Assembly (NCBI GenBank): GCA_963793425.1
Contig: CAWCAG010000007.1
Location: forward strand, 224,001-288,000
Direction: 5' to 3'
DNA from: an uncultured cyanobacterium
GTDB lineage: Bacteria; Cyanobacteriota; Cyanobacteriia; Cyanobacteriales; CAWCAG01
Length of the DNA: 64,000 nt
Part shown: positions 13,058-59,920 of the stretch, piece after piece
Layout: every line of letters starts with the position of its first letter
How positions within the stretch are numbered: position 1 is the first letter of the stretch
Notes under the pieces: generated by a model
The model's input: only the letters and a program-made list of their open reading frames with translations
What the model was told of the DNA's origin: nothing
Databases searched by the model: none
Translations under genes and position numbers: made by a program

Positions 13058-14767
13058 TTGCGATCGCTAGCTGTATTACGTATTGGTTTAGCTTTACTAA
13101 TTCTGACTGATTTATTTAAACGAGCTTTTGATCTTCAGTCTCACTATAGCGATGAAGGAATTCTACCTAGAAGTGTTTTAATTGAGCAAAATCTTAACCC
13201 CTGGCGTTGGTCGATACATTTATTTAGCGGACAGGCTTTATTTCAGGGAGTCTTATTTATTTTGGCAGGTGGGATCGCCATAGCCCTATTATTTGGCTAT
13301 CGTACTCGCTTTGTCACTATCATCTCCTGGGCTTTACTTTTATCTCTACAACTACGCAACCCTTTAATAAATAATGCTGGAGATGTGGAACTCCGCTTGA
13401 TTTTGTTTTGGAGTATCTTTTTGCCCCTGGGGGCGCATTATTCTGTAGATCGCGCCCTAAATTCCTCTTCTCGAATTTTGCCAAAACGCCTACTTTCTCC
13501 TGCCACGGTTGCCTTAACCCTACAAGTCTGCTTTGTTTACTGGTTTACCTGGAGCCTTAAATCAGATCCAATTTGGCATACAGAAGGTAGTGCAGTTTAT
13601 TATGCCCTCAACTTAGATTATTTAGTAACTCCCATTGGGAAATTTCTCCTCAACTTTCCTTCCCTGTTGGTTTTCCTTACCTTTACCACTCTTTGGTTTG
13701 AATTATTAGGGCCATTTTTACTTTTCGTACCCTTCCGCACGGATTTTTTCCGCTTCTTGGCAGTTATGCTTTTTGTTGGGCTTCATCTTGGTTTTGGAGC
13801 AGGATTACTAATTGGCCTTTTTCCCTATGTTAGTGCCGTAGCTTGGTTAGCATTTTTGCCCAGTGGGTTTTGGCAGGTTATTTCTCAACGTTTCAGCAAA
13901 TCAACTAACCAAGAAATCAGAATTTACTATAACCAAAAACAGGATTTTAGTCATAAGATTGCTTACTTACTCCGTACCTTCTTAATTCTGCCCAAGGTGC
14001 AACTGCTTCCGGCACAACAAGAAGCGGAAATTTTAGCAGCCATGAAAGGTAGAAAATCTTTGGCAGTAAGCAATGGAAAAGGTAAACTATATTTCCAGAC
14101 TGACGCAGTTGCTTATTTATTTCGCCTCTCGCCTTTATTTCATTTCCTGGCTGCTTTTATACCCTGGAAAATCATCAAGTTTCTCGGTCAAAAATTTGCT
14201 CTTTTACCAACAAAATCCTTCCTGAAGTTTCGTCCTCTCAAAATCTCTACTTCCCGAAGAATTAATCTTGTTGTCTCCTTCCTCTTCATACTCGTTTCTT
14301 GGTGGAATTTTCGTACAATTGCCCCTGATATATTTAAAATACCAAAAGATGCTGATGCTTTTGTTCGGGTTCTCGGTTTAGATCAAACCTGGAATATGTT
14401 TACCCCCCACCCACCCACAAAGGACGGTTGGTATGTAATTCCGGGCAAGCTTAGGGATGGTACAGAAATTGATCTTTTTCAAGGTGGTGAGTCTGTAAGC
14501 TGGGAAAAACCAAAGCTAGTTTCTGGCACTTTTGGCAATATGCGCTGGCGCAAATATATTATGATGTTGCACCGTAAGGATAAGAAGAAGTATCGGCTCT
14601 ATTATGGAAGATATCTTTGCCGAAGTTGGAATAATCGACATAAAGCGGCTCAACACCTTGATACTTTTGAGATTAATTTTATGTTAGAAAAAACTTTGCC
14701 AGATTATCAAACCCCAAAAGTAGAAAGACTTCGTATTTGGAAGCATACTTGTTCTAAGGGTTCCTAA
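13058..14767 (+). CDS. HTTM-domain membrane protein with an internal DCC1-like segment; N-terminus uncertain
   Basis: (FGLD)LRSLAVLRIGL, YSDEGILPR, LPLGAHYSVD, LDQTWNMF, RWRKY. An in-frame ATG at 12959 is followed by TAG at 13004. Confidence 0.8.
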   Translation: MRSLAVLRIGLALLILTDLFKRAFDLQSHYSDEGILPRSVLIEQNLNPWRWSIHLFSGQALFQGVLFILAGGIAIALLFGYRTRFVTIISWALLLSLQLRNPLINNAGDVELRLILFWSIFLPLGAHYSVDRALNSSSRILPKRLLSPATVALTLQVCFVYWFTWSLKSDPIWHTEGSAVYYALNLDYLVTPIGKFLLNFPSLLVFLTFTTLWFELLGPFLLFVPFRTDFFRFLAVMLFVGLHLGFGAGLLIGLFPYVSAVAWLAFLPSGFWQVISQRFSKSTNQEIRIYYNQKQDFSHKIAYLLRTFLILPKVQLLPAQQEAEILAAMKGRKSLAVSNGKGKLYFQTDAVAYLFRLSPLFHFLAAFIPWKIIKFLGQKFALLPTKSFLKFRPLKISTSRRINLVVSFLFILVSWWNFRTIAPDIFKIPKDADAFVRVLGLDQTWNMFTPHPPTKDGWYVIPGKLRDGTEIDLFQGGESVSWEKPKLVSGTFGNMRWRKYIMMLHRKDKKKYRLYYGRYLCRSWNNRHKAAQHLDTFEINFMLEKTLPDYQTPKVERLRIWKHTCSKGS

Positions 14768-14814
14768 GTCGATTTTGTTGTTTCATACCAAATCGGTTTA
14801 CCTTGAATGCCATT

Positions 14815-17800
14815 GTTTCAATCCCTCAGAGGGATTATTGTATGTTGCAACAATTCTGTTTCTGGTAATTCCCATTCGTGACAAGTTAAGCCAAAACGCA
14901 ATCTGTCAAGGGCTTTGGCAGGGGTAAGGGAGAGAGGTCGAGGGGAGGTTTTTGTTGTTTCTTATCTGTAGTTTGTAGGGTGTCGTTAGCTGCAAGCGTA
15001 ACGCACCATCTTGAAGTGAAAAAGCGAAGACGGTGCGTTAAGCGCTGAATCAAGATTGTGGTAGAGTTGCCATAATTTTTCGCAGCGCCAACACACCCTA
15101 CGTTGCTGAATATAACCATAGGGGTTTGACAGATTGGACTTTTACTTAAGTTGTCACCAATGGGTAATTCCTTACCTTCCAGTATGTTTCAATCCCTCAT
15201 AGGGATTATTGTATGTTGCAACGTGTTTCTAGTAGTTTCATCTCCTCAATTTTTCGTTTCAATCCCTCATAGGGATTATTGTATGTTGCAACCTAGCGCC
15301 GCGCGACCGGCACAGAGACAAACCACGTTTCAATCCCTCATAGGGATTATTATATGTTGCAACTTTTATTGAAAGCGTTGAAATGAATAGAAACAAATGT
15401 TTCAATCCCTCATAGGGATTATTGTATGTTGCAACCGGAATTGATGAAAGAATCGTCGTTCCTCAATGGGTTTCAATCCCTCATAGGGATTATTGTATGT
15501 TGCAACATCAATAAAGTCACCCAAAGATTCTTTAAGTAATCTGTTTCAATCCCTCATAGGGATTATTGTATGTTGCAACACCCGATTTTACACAGGCGGC
15601 TTTGGCTGAATGTGTTTCAATCCCTCATAGGGATTATTGTATGTTGCAACTACTTCGTAGTCAGCTTTTACAAGTTTACCAATTTGTTTCAATCCCTCAT
15701 AGGGATTATTGTATGTTGCAACAGGTCAAGTTACCGTCGTCACTAGAAATGTTCCCCGGTTTCAATCCCTCATAGGGATTATTGTATGTTGCAACCTTCA
15801 GCACTGCTAGTATCTTCAGCAATACTTGTAATTAGTTTCAATCCCTCATAGGGATTATTGTATGTTGCAACTTCAAGGAGTAATCCCGCGATCGCTGATA
15901 CACTCGTTTCAATCCCTCATAGGGATTATTGTATGTTGCAACACCTAAAAAATATACCAATACTTTAGGAGTAATGATGTTTCAATCCCTCATAGGGATT
16001 ATTGTATGTTGCAACGAATTGTACCATCTAAATCTAGTAATAGTATTTTGTTTCAATCCCTCATAGGGATTATTGTATGTTGCAACAACTAACAGGAGCA
16101 ATTGATAAAATCGGCAATCCTGAGTTTCAATCCCTCATAGGGATTATTGTATGTTGCAACAACAGTTGGAAGGCATAAAGCAAGAGAATAAATTGCGTTT
16201 CAATCCCTCATAGGGATTATTGTATGTTGCAACGTGTTCTTTCCCCCAAGGCTTTTAATGCAGCCACAGGTTTCAATCCCTCATAGGGATTATTGTATGT
16301 TGCAACGATATGCCTAATGCATCGCTCTACCTTCATTCATCGTTTCAATCCCTCATAGGGATTATTGTATGTTGCAACGTTAATCAGAACCATGGCGGAC
16401 TGTATTCTGCAAGTTGAGGATGTTTCAATCCCTCATAGGGATTATTGTATGTTGCAACACCTTTATTCCAAGTCTCAATAGAAAAAGGTGTAAGGTTTCA
16501 ATCCCTCATAGGGATTATTGTATGTTGCAACGATAAGGGATACAGCAGCCATAAAGCCCAGAAAAGTTTCAATCCCTCATAGGGATTATTGTATGTTGCA
16601 ACCCTGATGAGCCTGGTGATTTTAATGCACCTTCCTTGTTTCAATCCCTCATAGGGATTATTGTATGTTGCAACAACTACTTGACGAATTCTATGATAAT
16701 AGGGCTTTAGCAAGTAGTTTCAATCCCTCATAGGGATTATTGTATGTTGCAACGCTATCGTTTAGGTTAGGTCTGTATTAGATGCTACAGTTTCAATCCC
16801 TCATAGGGATTATTGTATGTTGCAACACTCATGACATCAAAAACTTTTTGTTACAAAACCTATTGTGTTTCAATCCCTCATAGGGATTATTGTATGTTGC
16901 AACATTTAGTAGAAGATGTTTTAGAAGAAGGAATTGATGTTTCAATCCCTCATAGGGATTATTGTATGTTGCAACCTGAAGGTTTTTCTCAGGAAGCTTC
17001 TATTAATCGGTTTCAATCCCTCATAGGGATTATTGTATGTTGCAACAAAATGGCTAGCAATCAAAACTTGGCGCTAGCTCGTTTCAATCCCTCATAGGGA
17101 TTATTGTATGTTGCAACTCAAAGAGAATAGCACGAACATGAAAGAAGAAGCGAATGTTTCAATCCCTCATAGGGATTATTGTATGTTGCAACATTGCTTT
17201 TGATAACCCGTCATTCCTGGCTTAAGGATGTTTCAATCCCTCATAGGGATTATTGTATGTTGCAACGTAAGTTCGTAATCAGCTAGTAGCTAAAGCTGCT
17301 GCAGTAGTTTCAATCCCTCATAGGGATTATTGTATGTTGCAACTTTGGCTTTTTTTGTACCGGGCTGCGATTTCGGAGTTTCAATCCCTCATAGGGATTA
17401 TTGTATGTTGCAACATCTGCAATCTTATTGTATCATGTATTCCCTTGTGTTTCAATCCCTCATAGGGATTATTGTATGTTGCAACATACTTTAGTGAATA
17501 TCCAATCTGATAAAGAGTCTGTTTCAATCCCTCATAGGGATTATTGTATGTTGCAACGGTTAGAGATATGTTGTTAGGGATTTGGGCAACTTCTGTTTCA
17601 ATCCCTCATAGGGATTATTGTATGTTGCAACAGTTTAGACGATATACCAAAAGAAACGTATGCTACCGTTTCAATCCCTCATAGGGATTATTGTATGTTG
17701 CAACGCTCCTGAATCTCTTTATGAGCCTCAGTGTCTCCTGTTTCAATCCCTCATAGGGATTATTGTATGTTGCAACAATGGTACAGCAATTACCAATAGC

Positions 17801-18658
17801 GATAGACTTCGTCGTTTCAATCCCTCATAGGGATTATTGTATGTTGCAACTTTGTGGAGGATTTTATTGAGCTGCGATAGGGTGTGTTTCAATCCCTCAT
17901 AGGGATTATTGTATGTTGCAACAAAGCAACGAACGACTTACCGCTACCCATCTCACCGTTTCAATCCCTCATAGGGATTATTGTATGTTGCAACTTTTGC
18001 CAAGAACCACCAGAAGAGGAACCAATACAGTTTCAATCCCTCATAGGGATTATTGTATGTTGCAACAAACTAATAGCAATTAAGCAAAAGATGCACCGAG
18101 AAGTTTCAATCCCTCATAGGGATTATTGTATGTTGCAACCTTCAACTGATTCAGAACGGGGTGCATTTTCTGACTGTGCTGTTTCAATCCCTCATAGGGA
18201 TTATTGTATGTTGCAACCTGGGAAGAAATCGTTGGGTACCACAATAGGATGTCGTTTCAATCCCTCATAGGGATTATTGTATGTTGCAACATAATGAGTA
18301 ATACAGCTGAATCCAGTAACATTATGTAGTTTCAATCCCTCATAGGGATTATTGTATGTTGCAACCACAAGATAGCAGGCGCTTGTGTGAAACTGAGAAG
18401 TAGGTTTCAATCCCTCATAGGGATTATTGTATGTTGCAACCAGGGTTGTAGTAATGGACTAAATTGTCATATCCCTTGTTTCAATCCCTCATAGGGATTA
18501 TTGTATGTTGCAACATTCTACAAAAACATCGTAGGCGCAGCCGTTTAAGTTTCAATCCCTCATAGGGATTATTGTATGTTGCAACCTTGTAACAGATAGT
18601 TCCAGTAGCGGTGATCCGTGGGTTTCAATCCCTCATAGGGATTATTGTATGTTGCAAC
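14815..18658 (-). CRISPR. CRISPR array, 49 x 37-bp repeats and 48 spacers; I-D-like; no cas genes in window
   Basis: Repeat on the + strand is GTTTCAATCCCTCATAGGGATTATTGTATGTTGCAAC. On the minus strand it ends ATTGAAAC and has an AATCCCT/AGGGATT hairpin. 48 repeats span 15186-18658 with spacers of 33-43 bp, plus a variant terminal repeat at 14815-14851. Variant repeats occur only at the left end, so the trailer is left and the leader right. Confidence 0.97.
14873..15162. mobile_element. 290-bp MITE (IS4-family-like ends) inserted in the trailer-end spacer
   Basis: TIRs CATTCGTGACAAGTTAAG / CTTAAGTTGTCACCAATG (16/18 match) with subterminal AATCTGTCAA/TTGACAGATT. 9-bp direct repeat GGTAATTCC at 14864-14872 and 15163-15171. 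Second copy at 57774-58061. Confidence 0.9.
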
Positions 18659-18900
18659 AGCGGTAGTTTGAAATGGTTGATGTATTTAGTTTTCAAGGTA
18701 CATTTGCGCGGCACACCTATAAAATTATCATAACCGACCATAAAAAACAATCCCAAAACCCTGAAACCCTTGCTGGGTATGGTGCGCGGCAGCCTCAAAA
18801 ATAGAAATCCCTGAAAGCTGCTGGGAGAGCGGATTTCAGGGATTTTCCACTCAATAGCCATTCTGATACCTACCCTGCCGCGCAAAATCGGGTGATTACC
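18659..18900 (-). promoter_or_regulatory. CRISPR leader
   Basis: Non-coding region adjoining the conserved end of the array, with TTTGCGCGGCA/TGCCGCGCAAA and CCCTGAAA direct and inverted motifs. Confidence 0.75.
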
Positions 18901-19092
18901 GAAGCAATATTCCAAAACAGATCACCTTTCCTTCCTGAACTATCACTTAAATTACTCACAGTGTCTCAAATACCAAATCCTTTACCCATTCTAATAGGAA
19001 TCAAGAAAAAGTCGATGAGATGAGAAAAACAACTGCTTCACATTCACTTTAGAATTAAGTCAATATTCAACTTAAACTTAAAAAAAGCAAAA

Positions 19093-20412
19093 ATGAAGGC
19101 GATCCCAACTGAATTGGCAACTTTGCTCCCAGCTAACCCAAACTTAGATATAGTTGCTTGGGAGGATCTTGAAGTATCATTTCAAGAAAAAATTGCCTCG
19201 GCGATCGCCACTTCTCATTTGCCAAGTTGTGCTGTTTTTCCCCATAGCCAAGAAGCTTTAGGAGAAGTTGTTAAAATTGTCCATAAAAAAAGCTGGCAGG
19301 TTTTAGTTATTGGTAGCGGCAGCAAAGTTAGTTGGGGGGGATTGGTTAAGAAAGCAGATTTAGTGATAAGTACCCAAAAACTATCTCGCCTCATTGATCA
19401 TGCAGTGGGAGATTTGACTGTTACCTTAGAAGCAGGAATGCCATTGGCACAGGTGCAAGAGATCCTCCATAAAGAAAGGCAATTTCTGCCTATTGATCCT
19501 GCTTACCCCCAAAGTGCAACCATCGGCGGCATCATCGCTACAGCAGATACCGGAAGTTGGCGACAGCGTTACGGCGGCATTAGGGATATGGTTTTAGGAA
19601 TTTCTTTTGTTCGGGCAGATGGGGAAATCGCCAAAGCTGGGGGGAGAGTGGTTAAGAATGTGGCAGGATACGATTTAATGAAACTGTTAACTGGCTCTTT
19701 TGGTACTTTAGGGGTTATTTCTCAAGTTACCCTACGCACCTATCCTTTACTCCAAGATTCTCAGACAATGTTTTTAAGCGGGGAAGAAAAGGCTATTGCT
19801 ATGACAGTGCAAACTCTCCTCAACTCAGCCTTGACACCTACAGCGGCTGATTTGCTTTCTCCTGGAGTTGTCAAAACTTTGGTTTCCCAGAAAGGTTTTG
19901 GCTTAATAGTCCGTTTCCAAAGTCTTACAGCTAGCATTGAAGCACAATCTCAAAGAATAGAGGAACTTGGCAATGAGTTGGGTTTACAAGCTACTACCTA
20001 CCAAGGAGATGCAGAAAGGGAACTTTGGCAGCGATCGCATTCCCTAGTTAACAATCCCCTTTCTCCAAACTCAGTTATTAGTAAAATCGGTGTTCTTCCT
20101 TCCTCTGCCACAGCAACTCTAGCCTATTTAGATGAAGTTACTTCCGGGGAAGGATTCGGTTTAATTCATAATAGTAGCGGCATTGGCAAACTGCAACTCA
20201 ATTCAGAAAAAAGCTTTAACCAAATACAAAAGTTGCGATCGCACTGTGAACAAAATCAGGGTTTTCTTACTATTTTAGAGTCTCCTCAACAATTGAAACA
20301 AAAACTTGAACCGTGGGGTTATACAGGTAATGCTATGACAATGATGCAACGGGTTAAAAATAAGTTTGATCCCCAAAATATTTTAAGTCCCGGTCGTTTT
20401 TTGGAGTTATGA
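19093..20412 (+). CDS. glcE: FAD-binding oxidoreductase, glycolate oxidase subunit GlcE-like
   Basis: DHAVGDLTVT, ATIGGIIATADTGSWRQRYGGIRD, GGRVVKNVAGYDLMKL, FDPQNILSPGRF. Confidence 0.85.
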   Translation: MKAIPTELATLLPANPNLDIVAWEDLEVSFQEKIASAIATSHLPSCAVFPHSQEALGEVVKIVHKKSWQVLVIGSGSKVSWGGLVKKADLVISTQKLSRLIDHAVGDLTVTLEAGMPLAQVQEILHKERQFLPIDPAYPQSATIGGIIATADTGSWRQRYGGIRDMVLGISFVRADGEIAKAGGRVVKNVAGYDLMKLLTGSFGTLGVISQVTLRTYPLLQDSQTMFLSGEEKAIAMTVQTLLNSALTPTAADLLSPGVVKTLVSQKGFGLIVRFQSLTASIEAQSQRIEELGNELGLQATTYQGDAERELWQRSHSLVNNPLSPNSVISKIGVLPSSATATLAYLDEVTSGEGFGLIHNSSGIGKLQLNSEKSFNQIQKLRSHCEQNQGFLTILESPQQLKQKLEPWGYTGNAMTMMQRVKNKFDPQNILSPGRFLEL

Positions 20413-56918: not shown

Positions 56919-57545
56919 ATGCAAGGTTCAACTTCAATAGATTCGTCGAAAACAACTCTCAATTATCAGGGTGAATTAGAAACAGGGGCAGCCCATGAGG
57001 AACATCCTGATTTGCGGATGTTTGGCTTAGTCTTGTTTCTGGTGGCTGAGAGTATGATCTTTCTCGGTTTGTTTGCGGCTTATTTAATTTATCATTTCAC
57101 TATGCCCGTTTGGCCCCCAGAAGGTCAGCCGGAGTTGGAACTTTTACTGCCAACCATTAACACAGTGATCCTCATCTCCAGCAGCTTTGTCATGCACAAA
57201 GGGCAAAGTGCAATTAAGAAAGATGATACTAAAGGGTTGCAACTTTGGTTTGGTATAACTGCTGTGATGGGAGCAATTTTCTTAGTCGGACAAGCTTATG
57301 AATATAGCCATTTAGAATTCGGTTTAACTAGTAATATTTTTGCTAGTTGTTTCTATGTCTTAACCGGATTCCACGGTTTGCACGTCACTTTAGGCTTGTT
57401 ACTAATCCTGGCTGTTTTGTGGCGATCGCGCGAAGAAAAGCACTATTCTGGTGCAGAACATTTTGGTGTGGAAGCTGCTGAACTTTATTGGCACTTTGTT
57501 GATGTAGTTTGGATTATTCTTTTCGGTTTAGTTTATTTGCTTTAA
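56919..57545 (+). CDS. coxC: Cytochrome c oxidase subunit III
   Basis: FLVAESMIF, LTGFHGLHV, YWHFVDVVW. Confidence 0.96.
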   Translation: MQGSTSIDSSKTTLNYQGELETGAAHEEHPDLRMFGLVLFLVAESMIFLGLFAAYLIYHFTMPVWPPEGQPELELLLPTINTVILISSSFVMHKGQSAIKKDDTKGLQLWFGITAVMGAIFLVGQAYEYSHLEFGLTSNIFASCFYVLTGFHGLHVTLGLLLILAVLWRSREEKHYSGAEHFGVEAAELYWHFVDVVWIILFGLVYLL

Positions 57546-57773: not shown

Positions 57774-58061
57774 CAATTAACAATTTAAGTAAAAGTCCAA
57801 TCTGTCAAACCCCTGTGGTTAGATTCAGCAACGTAGGGTGTGTTGGTGCTGCGAAAAATTATGGCAAGTCTACCACAATCTTGATTCAGCGCTTAACGCA
57901 CCGTCTTAGCTTTTTCACTTCAAGATGGTGCGTTACGCTTGCAGCTAACGACACCCTACGAACTACAGATAAGAAACGACAAAAACCTCCCCTCGACCTC
58001 TCTCTCTTACCCCTGCCAAAGCCCTTGAAAAATTGCGTTTTGGCTTAACTTGTCACGATTG
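57774..58061. mobile_element. Second (inverted) copy of the 290-bp MITE
   Basis: Reverse complement of 14873-15162 with about a dozen substitutions (counted by eye); one TIR is degenerate and there is no clear target duplication. Confidence 0.9.
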
Positions 58062-58144: not shown

Positions 58145-59920
58145 TTTGTAACTATCCTTTACCTGAATATTAACCAGCTAACGGCACTACCAGCAGAAAT
58201 AGTCCAACTACCCAAATTAAAAAGACTTTACCTACAGGGCAATCCTCTCCCCATTTCTCCTGAAATTCTGGCTGATAATAACGCAAAAAGTATTCTTAAC
58301 TTTTACTTCGCCACCCAAGACCCCAACGCTACAGAAAAACTCTACGAAGCCAAATTCCTCATCGTCGGCGAAGGGGGAGCGGGAAAAACCTCCCTGGCTA
58401 AAAAGATTCAAGATTCGGAATACAAACTCAATCCCAATGAAAAATCTACCCACAGCATAGAAGTAATTCAATGGCGCTTTCCCCTTGATGATGGGCAAGA
58501 ATTTCGCGCCAACCTCTGGGACTTTGGGGGGTAGGCAATCTACCACCAAACTCACCAATTTTTCCTCACAAAACGCTCCCTTTATGCCCTCGTCGCCGAC
58601 ACTCGTAAGGAAAATACTGACTTTCCCTATTGGCTCAACTCCATAGAATTCTTTGGTGGGGATAGTCCGGTGTTGTTGATTAAGAATGAGAAAAACGATC
58701 GCCCCTGCAATGTTAACGAGGGAAGACTAAAAAGAGACTTTCATTACATCAAAGAAATTTTACCCACCAACCTTAAAGATGGTCGCGGTTTAGAAGAGAT
58801 TAAAACCGCCATCCGCTACCACATTAGCCGCCTGGAATATGTCGGTACTCCTTTACCTAAAAAATGGGACCGGGTGCGTTATGCCCTGGAAAATGATGCC
58901 CGTAACTATATTGATCAGGGTGATTACTTTGCCCTGTGTAAAAGAAATGGAGTGAGGGAGAGAGAAGAAATGCTGCAAATTAGTGACTTCCTACATAAAT
59001 TGGGTATCTGTCTCCACTTTCAAGAAGATTCTACCCTCAAACATATTGTCATTCTCCGTCCCGAATGGGCTACTAATGCTGTTTATGCGGTGTTAAAAAA
59101 TAACAAAGTTGCTGCGGCTAAAGGTTTATTTACTTCCTCTGACCTCAAAGAAATTTGGCAAGAGAGGCAATATACCCATATGGGAGATGAATTGCTGCAA
59201 CTGATGGAGAGGTTTAAGCTTTGCTACCCCATCCCTGGCTTACCGCAACATTATATTGCCCCGCAACTCCTGGAATTTGAACCACCAGATTATGATTGGG
59301 AGGAGAAAAATAACTTGATGCTGCGCTACGAATATGAGTTTATGCCCAAGGGCATCATCACCCAACTTATTGTCCGGCTTTATCGCTGGATTGAACAACA
59401 GCAAATTGTTTGGCGTAGCGGTGTCGTCCTTAACAATAGTCGCGCCCGCGCCGAAGTCATCGAAACATATCGCCCCTATAAAGGAGAAATCTGCCTCCAG
59501 GTTTCTGGTGTCCAGAATAAGGAACTTCTCAGCGTGGTGGCTAACGAAATTGACCAAATAAATAGTTCTTTTGAAAGAATAGATGTTAGTAAAAAGATTC
59601 CCTGTAACTGCCAGGAATGCCAGAAAGATCCTGACCCCTATTTCTTTAACTTAGAAACCCTCTATCGCGCCCTTGATAAAAAGCATTATACAATCGATTG
59701 CCACAAAAGCTTTGAAGATGTGAATGTTCGCAGCTTAACGGCTGTGGTAGCAAGTGACTTCTTGTTAGGAGGAGATAAAAAACAAATTGAGCAAGAAAGA
59801 TTTGAACGCTTAAAAGAGCAACATACTGAATATTACCAACCTAACACTGATTTGAGCGACAATATTTTTATTAATGCTGGGGTCGCTTTTCTTGATGGTT
59901 TGAGCGGGGAACCTGATTAA
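58145..59920 (+). pseudogene. LRR-Roc-COR (Roco) gene, 5'-truncated, with an in-frame amber codon
   Basis: LYLNINQLTALPAEIVQLPKLKRLYLQGNPL (LRR), IVGEGGAGKTSL (P-loop), WDFGG*AIYHQTHQFFL (TAG 58532-58534), IKNEKND, then a COR domain in the same frame. No start codon upstream of the LRR. Confidence 0.85.

Follow-up and report, generated by a model that had tools for sequence, protein, structure and literature searches.

A transposable element of the miniature inverted-repeat class (MITE) has jumped into a spacer of a CRISPR array in the genome of an uncultured cyanobacterium (GenBank assembly GCA_963793425.1, GTDB order Cyanobacteriales), and the spacer as it stood before the insertion can be rebuilt. 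The array lies in a stretch of 64,000 nucleotides (nt) from contig CAWCAG010000007.1 (positions 224,001 to 288,000, forward strand), which is referred to here as the window. Positions in the window are given without a prefix, and positions elsewhere in the assembly, which comprises 9 contigs and is 98.6% complete, follow a contig label such as C9; the window itself is on C7. We regard it as very probable that a MITE belonging to the IS4 family of insertion sequences (ISs) transposed into the oldest spacer of an array that is of the type I-D kind and has no cas genes beside it, that its target choice was an ordinary one, and that the event was close to neutral. The features on which this reading is built are collected in Table 1.

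The interruption is evident from the spacing of the repeats. The first two repeats are 371 nt apart, start to start, versus 70 to 80 nt for all other neighboring pairs in the array. The first-pass annotation of the sequence had claimed a gap of 334 bp at this point, and the measurement bears it out: the first interval, positions 14852 to 15185, is 334 nt long, while the other 47 spacers measure 33 to 43 nt and 32 of these 47 fall between 34 and 36 nt. Across the five arrays of the genome that have the same repeat core, the spacing is abnormal in 1 of 128 repeat intervals. The terminal repeat (14815 to 14851) has its single mismatch in the loop of the hairpin and an unbroken stem.

The long interval has the anatomy of a transposition product. 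The sequence GGTAATTCC is found at 14864 to 14872 and again at 15163 to 15171, identical at 9 of 9 positions, and the DNA between these two copies begins and ends with terminal inverted repeats (TIRs) in which 16 of 18 positions are complementary (14873 to 14890 versus 15145 to 15162); the inverted similarity reaches 46 nt at 78%. A 290-bp element with 18-bp TIRs and an exact 9-bp duplication, as proposed on first reading, is therefore what the interval contains. When the element and one copy of the 9-mer were deleted by coordinates with a script, a spacer of 35 nt remained, which is the modal length for the array. The earlier proposal of a 35-nt original spacer was thereby recovered, and the peptide that it had read from the minus strand in frame 0, ILEGKELPETE, is a correct translation but carries no meaning. 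Because four of the six frames of the 35-mer are open, that reading has no weight, and a coding interpretation of the 11 residues was rejected.

Table 1. Features of the CRISPR array, the inserted element, and a related copy, in window coordinates
Feature	Position	Strand	Remarks
CRISPR array	14815..18658	-	49 repeats of 37 nt, 48 intervals; cas-less; repeat of type I-D kind
Terminal (trailer-end) repeat	14815..14851	-	36 of 37 positions as in consensus; Rfam CRISPR-DR5, 48.5 bits
Interrupted spacer, 3' part in CRISPR RNA (crRNA) sense	14852..14872	-	21 nt; last 9 nt (14864-14872) are duplication copy 1
MITE, non-autonomous, assigned to the IS4 family as a derivative	14873..15162	.	290 bp; imperfect TIRs at 14873-14890 and 15145-15162
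Interrupted spacer, 5' part in crRNA sense	15163..15185	-	23 nt; first 9 nt on the plus strand (15163-15171) are duplication copy 2
Consensus repeat, would give the 5' handle of the interrupted unit	15186..15222	-	From repeat scan and Rfam
Array leader	18660..18941	-	Similarity to two array-adjoining segments
Second MITE copy in the window	57780..58061	-	96% identity over 282 nt; far end decayed, no clear duplication; 10 private differences

The element is dispersed in the genome. Comparison of the MITE with its own assembly gave 20 matches at an E value of ≤0.001, and 6 of them are at least 146 nt long at 94 to 100% identity, on three contigs. Beyond the inserted element there are thus five further copies, with identities of 94 to 97%. 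One of these, at C9:287086-287375, is intact: it is 97% identical to the inserted element, has the same two ends, and is flanked by a different exact 9-bp duplication of its own, CCTAGCAAG. Because this independent intact copy agrees with the one in the array, the boundaries of the element and the length of the duplication can be considered settled. The private differences are lowest in the two intact copies (4 and 2), which are 96.9% identical to each other. Another copy is the one listed for the window in Table 1, which sits between open reading frames (ORFs) at 56919 to 57545 and 58232 to 58558, and the remaining three are truncated. Of the six copies, one is in a CRISPR array and five are not. 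The element therefore has the properties by which a MITE is recognized, namely, a length of 290 bp, TIRs, a fixed 9-bp duplication, no transposase gene, dispersed copies, and ends in common with an IS. Transposition of a MITE into a spacer, the central claim of the first-pass annotation, is supported by the anatomy of the interval, by the dispersed copies, and by the duplication that belongs to the second intact copy.

The interior of the MITE appears to be noncoding. Its longest stop-free frame, 91 codons on the minus strand (14889 to 15161), spans nearly the whole element and is kept in the second intact copy. This frame gave no Pfam match at E values up to 1 and may be a chance product, for which a rough estimate over six frames gives roughly 7%. 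An Rfam scan produced no match within the MITE, a comparison of the MITE with a plasmid collection produced none either, and consensus-match scans detected no promoter-like or terminator-like site within it. The RNA of the element is predicted to fold with −89.7 kcal/mol (z of −6.85). An inner segment at about 14975 to 15100 (about 103 to 230 of the element) recurs alone at about a dozen sites of the genome with 74 to 95% identity and is bounded by a 9-nt inverted repeat, which suggests a smaller repeat nested inside the MITE. Truncated MITE copies and solitary end motifs often adjoin tandem heptamers, for example, GGTAATA and CCATTAG; such sites in this genome include C7:409171, C5:708968, C5:1890660, C5:898061, and others.

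The parentage of the MITE was traced through its ends. In the species-representative genome collection, a 19-nt end motif taken from this genome is matched exactly at no fewer than 119 sites, and the records listed are nearly all cyanobacterial. Statistics on end pairs and flanks were drawn from the loci among the matches listed, in which overlapping loci show some elements twice. Among these loci there are 32 inverted end pairs, 6 of them with exact 9-bp duplications: four of these elements are 223 to 265 bp long and two are 1,496 bp long. The two 1,496-bp elements, which have ends of the MITE type together with their 9-bp duplications, are in other genomes (loci L057 and L115). The L115 element contains an ORF of 450 amino acids that scores 163.4 bits against NF033592, the NCBIfam model of the IS4 family (cut-off, 115 bits), and 65 bits against PF01609 (DDE_Tnp_1). 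The MITE and the 1,496-bp ISs have the terminal motif in common, as well as a GTCAAG in subterminal position, about 30 nt inward. Judged by these shared ends, the 290-bp element is a MITE derived from an IS4-family insertion sequence.

No full-length autonomous partner was found in the genome that harbors the MITE, where only two end pairs with duplications are present, both of them 290 bp long. A search of the same assembly for a transposase of the L115 type returned no close homologue, the best match having 26% identity and an E value of 9e-5. The MITE may be stranded at present in a genome without a transposase to mobilize it, and we infer from these searches that it is now immobile.

IS10 and IS50, which are members of the IS4 family, encode a DDE transposase, duplicate 9 bp of target DNA, and follow a weak, roughly palindromic target consensus. 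The end motif studied here gives a similar picture: 74 distinct 9-mer flanks from other genomes yield the weak, roughly palindromic consensus GCTATTAGC, which resembles the hotspot pattern of IS10. The terminal sequences and hosts of IS10 and IS50 are unrelated to those of the MITE, and the mechanism is carried over from them by family membership only. Scored with the GCTATTAGC matrix, the insertion site ranks 16th among 3,538 positions in the array and is at the 98.9th percentile of the window. The site was probably picked by the weak taste of the transposase for a roughly palindromic 9-mer and not by a property of the CRISPR array. Ordinary target choice is indicated because five of the six copies are outside arrays, because 1 of the 128 repeat intervals is abnormal, and because the site fits GCTATTAGC. 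A Tn7-like element that targets arrays was considered and ruled out, given an element of 290 bp with no genes and with five of six copies outside arrays.

The position of the interrupted spacer within the array depends on the direction in which the array is read. We read it on the minus strand, with 14815 at the trailer end, because leader homology, the strand of the Rfam matches, and the degenerate repeat at 14815 all point that way. The leader is 79% identical over 267 nt to C5:1518294-1518560, which flanks another array, and 75% identical over 276 nt to C9:1223-1497, which is located between a type I-D array and a cas2-like frame (identified by eye only) with cas1 beyond. The repeats match Rfam CRISPR-DR5 on the minus strand with 48.5 to 52.6 bits (cut-off, 40). 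Consensus matches, and these only, identify promoter-like minus-strand sites at 18756 to 18727 and 19015 to 18988 and two terminator-like minus-strand sites that are within the array, upstream of the last unit. The minus-strand transcription assumed in the first-pass annotation thus appears to be correct, supported as it is by leader similarity (75 to 79%) and by the strand of CRISPR-DR5. With the leader at 18660 to 18941, the interrupted spacer is therefore the trailer-most and oldest of the 48. It also follows from this orientation that the 23 nt adjoining the repeat at 15186 to 15222 represent the old guide's 5' part, in agreement with the first-pass annotation.

The 37-nt repeat agrees at 34 of 37 positions with that of the cas-linked type I-D array (C9:7-1213, C1:428392-430201). 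Arrays with this repeat core are found on C1 (25 repeats), C5 (40), C7 (the array in the window, 49), and C9 (17), and C9 has in addition a two-repeat mini-array, which gives the 128 intervals mentioned above. No cas domains were detected in the 19 ORFs between 393 and 23779, so that the array in the window is an orphan; a check of the C5 array for cas genes showed it to be an orphan, too. The label "type I(-D)" is given to the array in the window solely from the similarity of its repeat and leader and is to be taken as putative. A type I-D operon is located on C9 beside an array and includes cas3', cas10d, csc2, csc1, cas6, cas4, and cas1. Searching with TIGR01877 identified one Cas6 in the genome, and type III Cas10/Cmr2-like genes are found elsewhere in the genome.

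Several features of these CRISPR loci are recorded here as observations in their own right. The type I-D cas1 is split into two overlapping ORFs on the minus strand of locus L034 (positions 1833 to 2836, on C9), one of 219 amino acids covering model positions 1 to 193 and one of 137 amino acids covering positions 201 to 334. The split reflects either a sequencing error or a frameshift, and in the latter case spacer acquisition would be disabled. The two-repeat mini-array with the same repeat core, at C9:11336-11442 (also in L034), is within the type I-D operon beside cas3' and in the opposite orientation to the main array. Identical leader-like segments occur on C2, C3, and C6, with a related one on C8, and Cas10/Cmr2-like matches are present on the same contigs; these segments may stem from type III modules that recur on small contigs, or they may be assembly duplicates.

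Sequence data from outside the assembly were used to examine the junctions. Five public runs contain part of the stretch, and four of them, all from one study, contain 48 to 60% of the sampled words; their assembled contigs were compared with the window. The left junction is bridged by contigs of 495 nt (run X1), 2,164 nt (X2), and 367 nt (X4), which connect the flanking gene, via the terminal repeat and the 21-nt part of the spacer, with the MITE. The right junction is bridged by contigs of 129 nt (X1) and 119 nt (X3), which pass from the MITE across the 23-nt part to the repeat that follows. Both borders of the MITE, for which a check of this kind had been suggested, are therefore bridged by contigs of four runs. 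The bridging contigs differ slightly from the window, for example, by a second variant of the hairpin loop at 14828 (X1 and X2), and because they carry such differences, more than one strain variant must have the insertion. Among the contigs of the four runs, none with a joint that skips the MITE, that is, an empty site, is listed. Because the bridging contigs come from four runs and include strain variants, and because none skips the MITE, it is most likely that the insertion has been passed on stably within the population sampled. One X3 contig follows the terminal repeat to 14837 and then continues into unrelated sequence, which may reflect a strain variant or a chimeric contig.

A search of related genomes returned matches in 25 of 41 genomes (that of the MITE included), and nearly all of them are to repeats only. 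In the sole genome of the same genus (G001), the array and leader are absent (14790 to 19040 of the window), and the genes that flank them here (13058 to 14767 and 19093 to 20412) abut. The orphan array is located within an insertion/deletion of about 4.2 kb. The empty allele that the first-pass annotation had hoped for was not found in the 41 genomes; since G001 has both neighboring genes but no array, it has no uninterrupted spacer at this position either.

No protospacer was found for the interrupted spacer when it was searched as halves in public collections and as the 35-mer in its own genome. The 23-nt right half has no exact match in the collections viral_contigs, metagenome_contigs, and genome_contigs. 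Both halves, together with the adjoining repeat, were also compared with phages and plasmids at E values up to 10, and the matches either involve the repeat part or are short, with E values of ≥1 and in unrelated hosts. The matches to the repeat part fall in CRISPR arrays of the Nostoc phages N1 and YongM, of Microcystis phages, and of Nostoc and Anabaena plasmids. For the repeat at 15186 to 15222, the similarity to CRISPR-like repeats of these Nostoc phages (N1 and YongM) and of the Microcystis phages amounts to 87 to 93% identity over 26 to 38 nt. In the 9 contigs of its own genome, the rebuilt 35-mer matches only its own two halves; other matches do not exceed 17 nt and have E values of ≥0.37. 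None of the other 47 spacers matches a MITE copy when compared with the genome, and the best match outside the array covers 26 of 28 nt. This match, between the spacer at 15364 to 15398 and the chromosomal segment C7:490843-490870, may be a partial self-match or a match to a prophage.

We propose the following course of events. A 290-bp derivative of an IS4-type element would have inserted in the trailer-most spacer, presumably by a cut-and-paste mechanism, and in doing so would have made the 9-bp target duplication typical of the family. Transcription from the leader at the far end would place the other 47 units upstream of the insertion, where they would be untouched, so that the last unit alone would be altered. 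In other systems, Cas6 cuts each repeat at a point 8 nt ahead of its 3' end. If this spacing is assumed here by analogy, cutting of both flanking repeats would turn the last unit into an RNA of 371 nt, from 15193 to 14823 on the minus strand, where about 72 nt would otherwise be expected.

Whether that RNA could still be of use was weighed against near-neutrality. In type I guides the seed occupies the 5' end of the spacer, and in type III systems the crRNAs undergo trimming of their 3' ends. The retained 23 nt are the 5' side of the guide, both flanking repeats keep their hairpin stem and last 8 nt, and the genome has a type I-D Cas6, effector genes, and type III Cas10/Cmr2-like genes, all of which would suit a chimeric guide made up of the 5' handle, the 23 nt, and the end of the MITE; such a guide might bind or prime with less than full interference, or be trimmed by the type III complexes and remain active, and a structured MITE RNA, for which the strong predicted fold speaks (z of −6.85), might be released with it. 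The unit in question is nevertheless the last of 48 in a cas-less array, about 3.4 to 3.8 kb from the leader, with the two terminator-like sites upstream of it on the minus strand, and no target was found for the 23-mer (as an exact match) or for the halves. We therefore think it very unlikely that a usable chimeric guide is produced, though least so for type III complexes that trim the 3' end. It is decidedly unlikely that the last unit is still productive in the stronger sense of a type III or 3'-trimmed type I-D guide that gives partial immunity or priming, together with a stable MITE RNA driven from the leader. If this were true, however, a crRNA with a transposon tail would be a natural test of the 3' guide length needed by these cyanobacterial effectors.

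A selective origin of the insertion has a precedent in Sulfolobus, in which ISC1359 was found in a plasmid-matching spacer under selection, as set out in the relevant part of Garrett et al. (PMC4390879), and the MITE could in the same manner have knocked out a harmful spacer directed against the DNA of the host itself or against a plasmid of benefit to it. Within the 9 contigs, however, the rebuilt spacer has no match but its own halves, and it is the oldest spacer, at what is presumably the weakly expressed end of the array, interrupted at a site that fits the general target preference of the transposon; a selected knockout is very improbable. An assembly artefact, in which repeats induced a chimera that joined a MITE copy into the array, might be suspected in a 9-contig assembly because MITEs and CRISPR repeats are both repetitive. 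Contigs from other runs nevertheless cross both junctions (X1, X2, and X4 on the left and X1 and X3 on the right), and an exact 9-bp duplication with a remainder of 35 nt is predicted by transposition and not by a chimera. There is hardly any likelihood that the insertion arose in this way.

Transposition of an IS4-family MITE by ordinary target choice, with little effect on the host, thus remains the reading that we prefer, and four points weigh against it or call for caution. The missing transposase is not proof of a stranded element, as assemblies often leave insertion sequences out. Arrays account for about 0.2% of the genome and hold one of the six copies, which taken at face value looks like an enrichment, but the case was chosen after the fact and insertions survive mainly in noncoding DNA. 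All four runs belong to a single study, and the assembly itself may derive from among them, so that they do not count as independent support. Finally, neutrality or near-neutrality, although most likely, is something that we infer.

Insertions of MITEs and ISs into CRISPR arrays have been published before, including one in Anabaena sp. strain PCC 7120, and the present case is a further example. In the passages of Reimann et al. that treat this strain (bioRxiv 10.1101/2020.04.14.041012, citing Hou et al. 2019), CR_6 and CR_7 are described as one array recently split by a MITE of 134 nt, and the strain is said to have several cas-less arrays with related repeats that are processed by two Cas6 enzymes encoded elsewhere. 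As far as those passages go, the two cases agree in that a cyanobacterial MITE is located in a cas-less array and in that the genome has several arrays of this sort as well as a type I-D system. The Anabaena event is read there as recent and as part of array fragmentation. Whereas a 134-nt element split the Anabaena array, the element described here is 290 bp long, is in the last spacer, and cuts off one repeat.

Other insertions into arrays are further removed. According to the part of Garrett et al. 2015 (PMC4390879) that deals with them, ISH4 and a MITE of 132 bp turned up in arrays of euryarchaea in an early survey, such events are rare, and the ISC1359 insertion into a plasmid-matching spacer under selection prevents the production of mature crRNA. 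The cases in that account are archaeal, and the ISC1359 events were selected experimentally against a matching plasmid, whereas no such selection is evident here. Cyanobacterial Tn7-like elements, in the portion of Chacon Machado and Peters 2025 (PMC11837452) that describes them, insert at a fixed position of a spacer, often at the old end of the array and in orphan arrays as well, with little expected harm. The MITE resembles them, on that description, in being mobile DNA inside a spacer at the old array end; the Tn7-like elements, in contrast, are autonomous, carry transposition genes, and keep a fixed position relative to the repeat, while the MITE is a noncoding 290-bp element of the IS4 type with a 9-bp duplication. 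Among cyanobacterial MITEs, Nezha elements are about 130 to 170 bp long and share their ends with ISNpu3 (Zhou et al. 2008, in the summary given in PMC3184786). As outlined in that summary, they are like the element studied here in being noncoding, in having TIRs common to a full-length IS of other species, in their flanking direct repeats, and in a stable predicted fold; they differ from it in size (290 bp here), and the two are likened by description only. Sheng et al. 2023 (PMC10359306) provide a catalogue of IS and MITE insertions in cas genes. The word "CRISPR" does not occur in the text of a 2024 review of MITEs (PMC10969869), and a census of MITEs (PMC11602168) mentions CRISPR for host assignment only.

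Located as it is at the old end of an array with no cas genes beside it, the insertion is likely to have little biological consequence, and the old spacer had probably lost its use before the MITE arrived. For the annotation of such loci, programs that find arrays may drop the terminal repeat at 14815 to 14851, which would lead to a miscount of spacers. The locus offers a natural case of insertion with an exact duplication, a spacer that can be rebuilt, a known array orientation, and an identified transposon family. It leaves the general understanding of CRISPR or of MITEs unchanged, and it contributes one more case to the published view that arrays of filamentous cyanobacteria are broken up by mobile elements.

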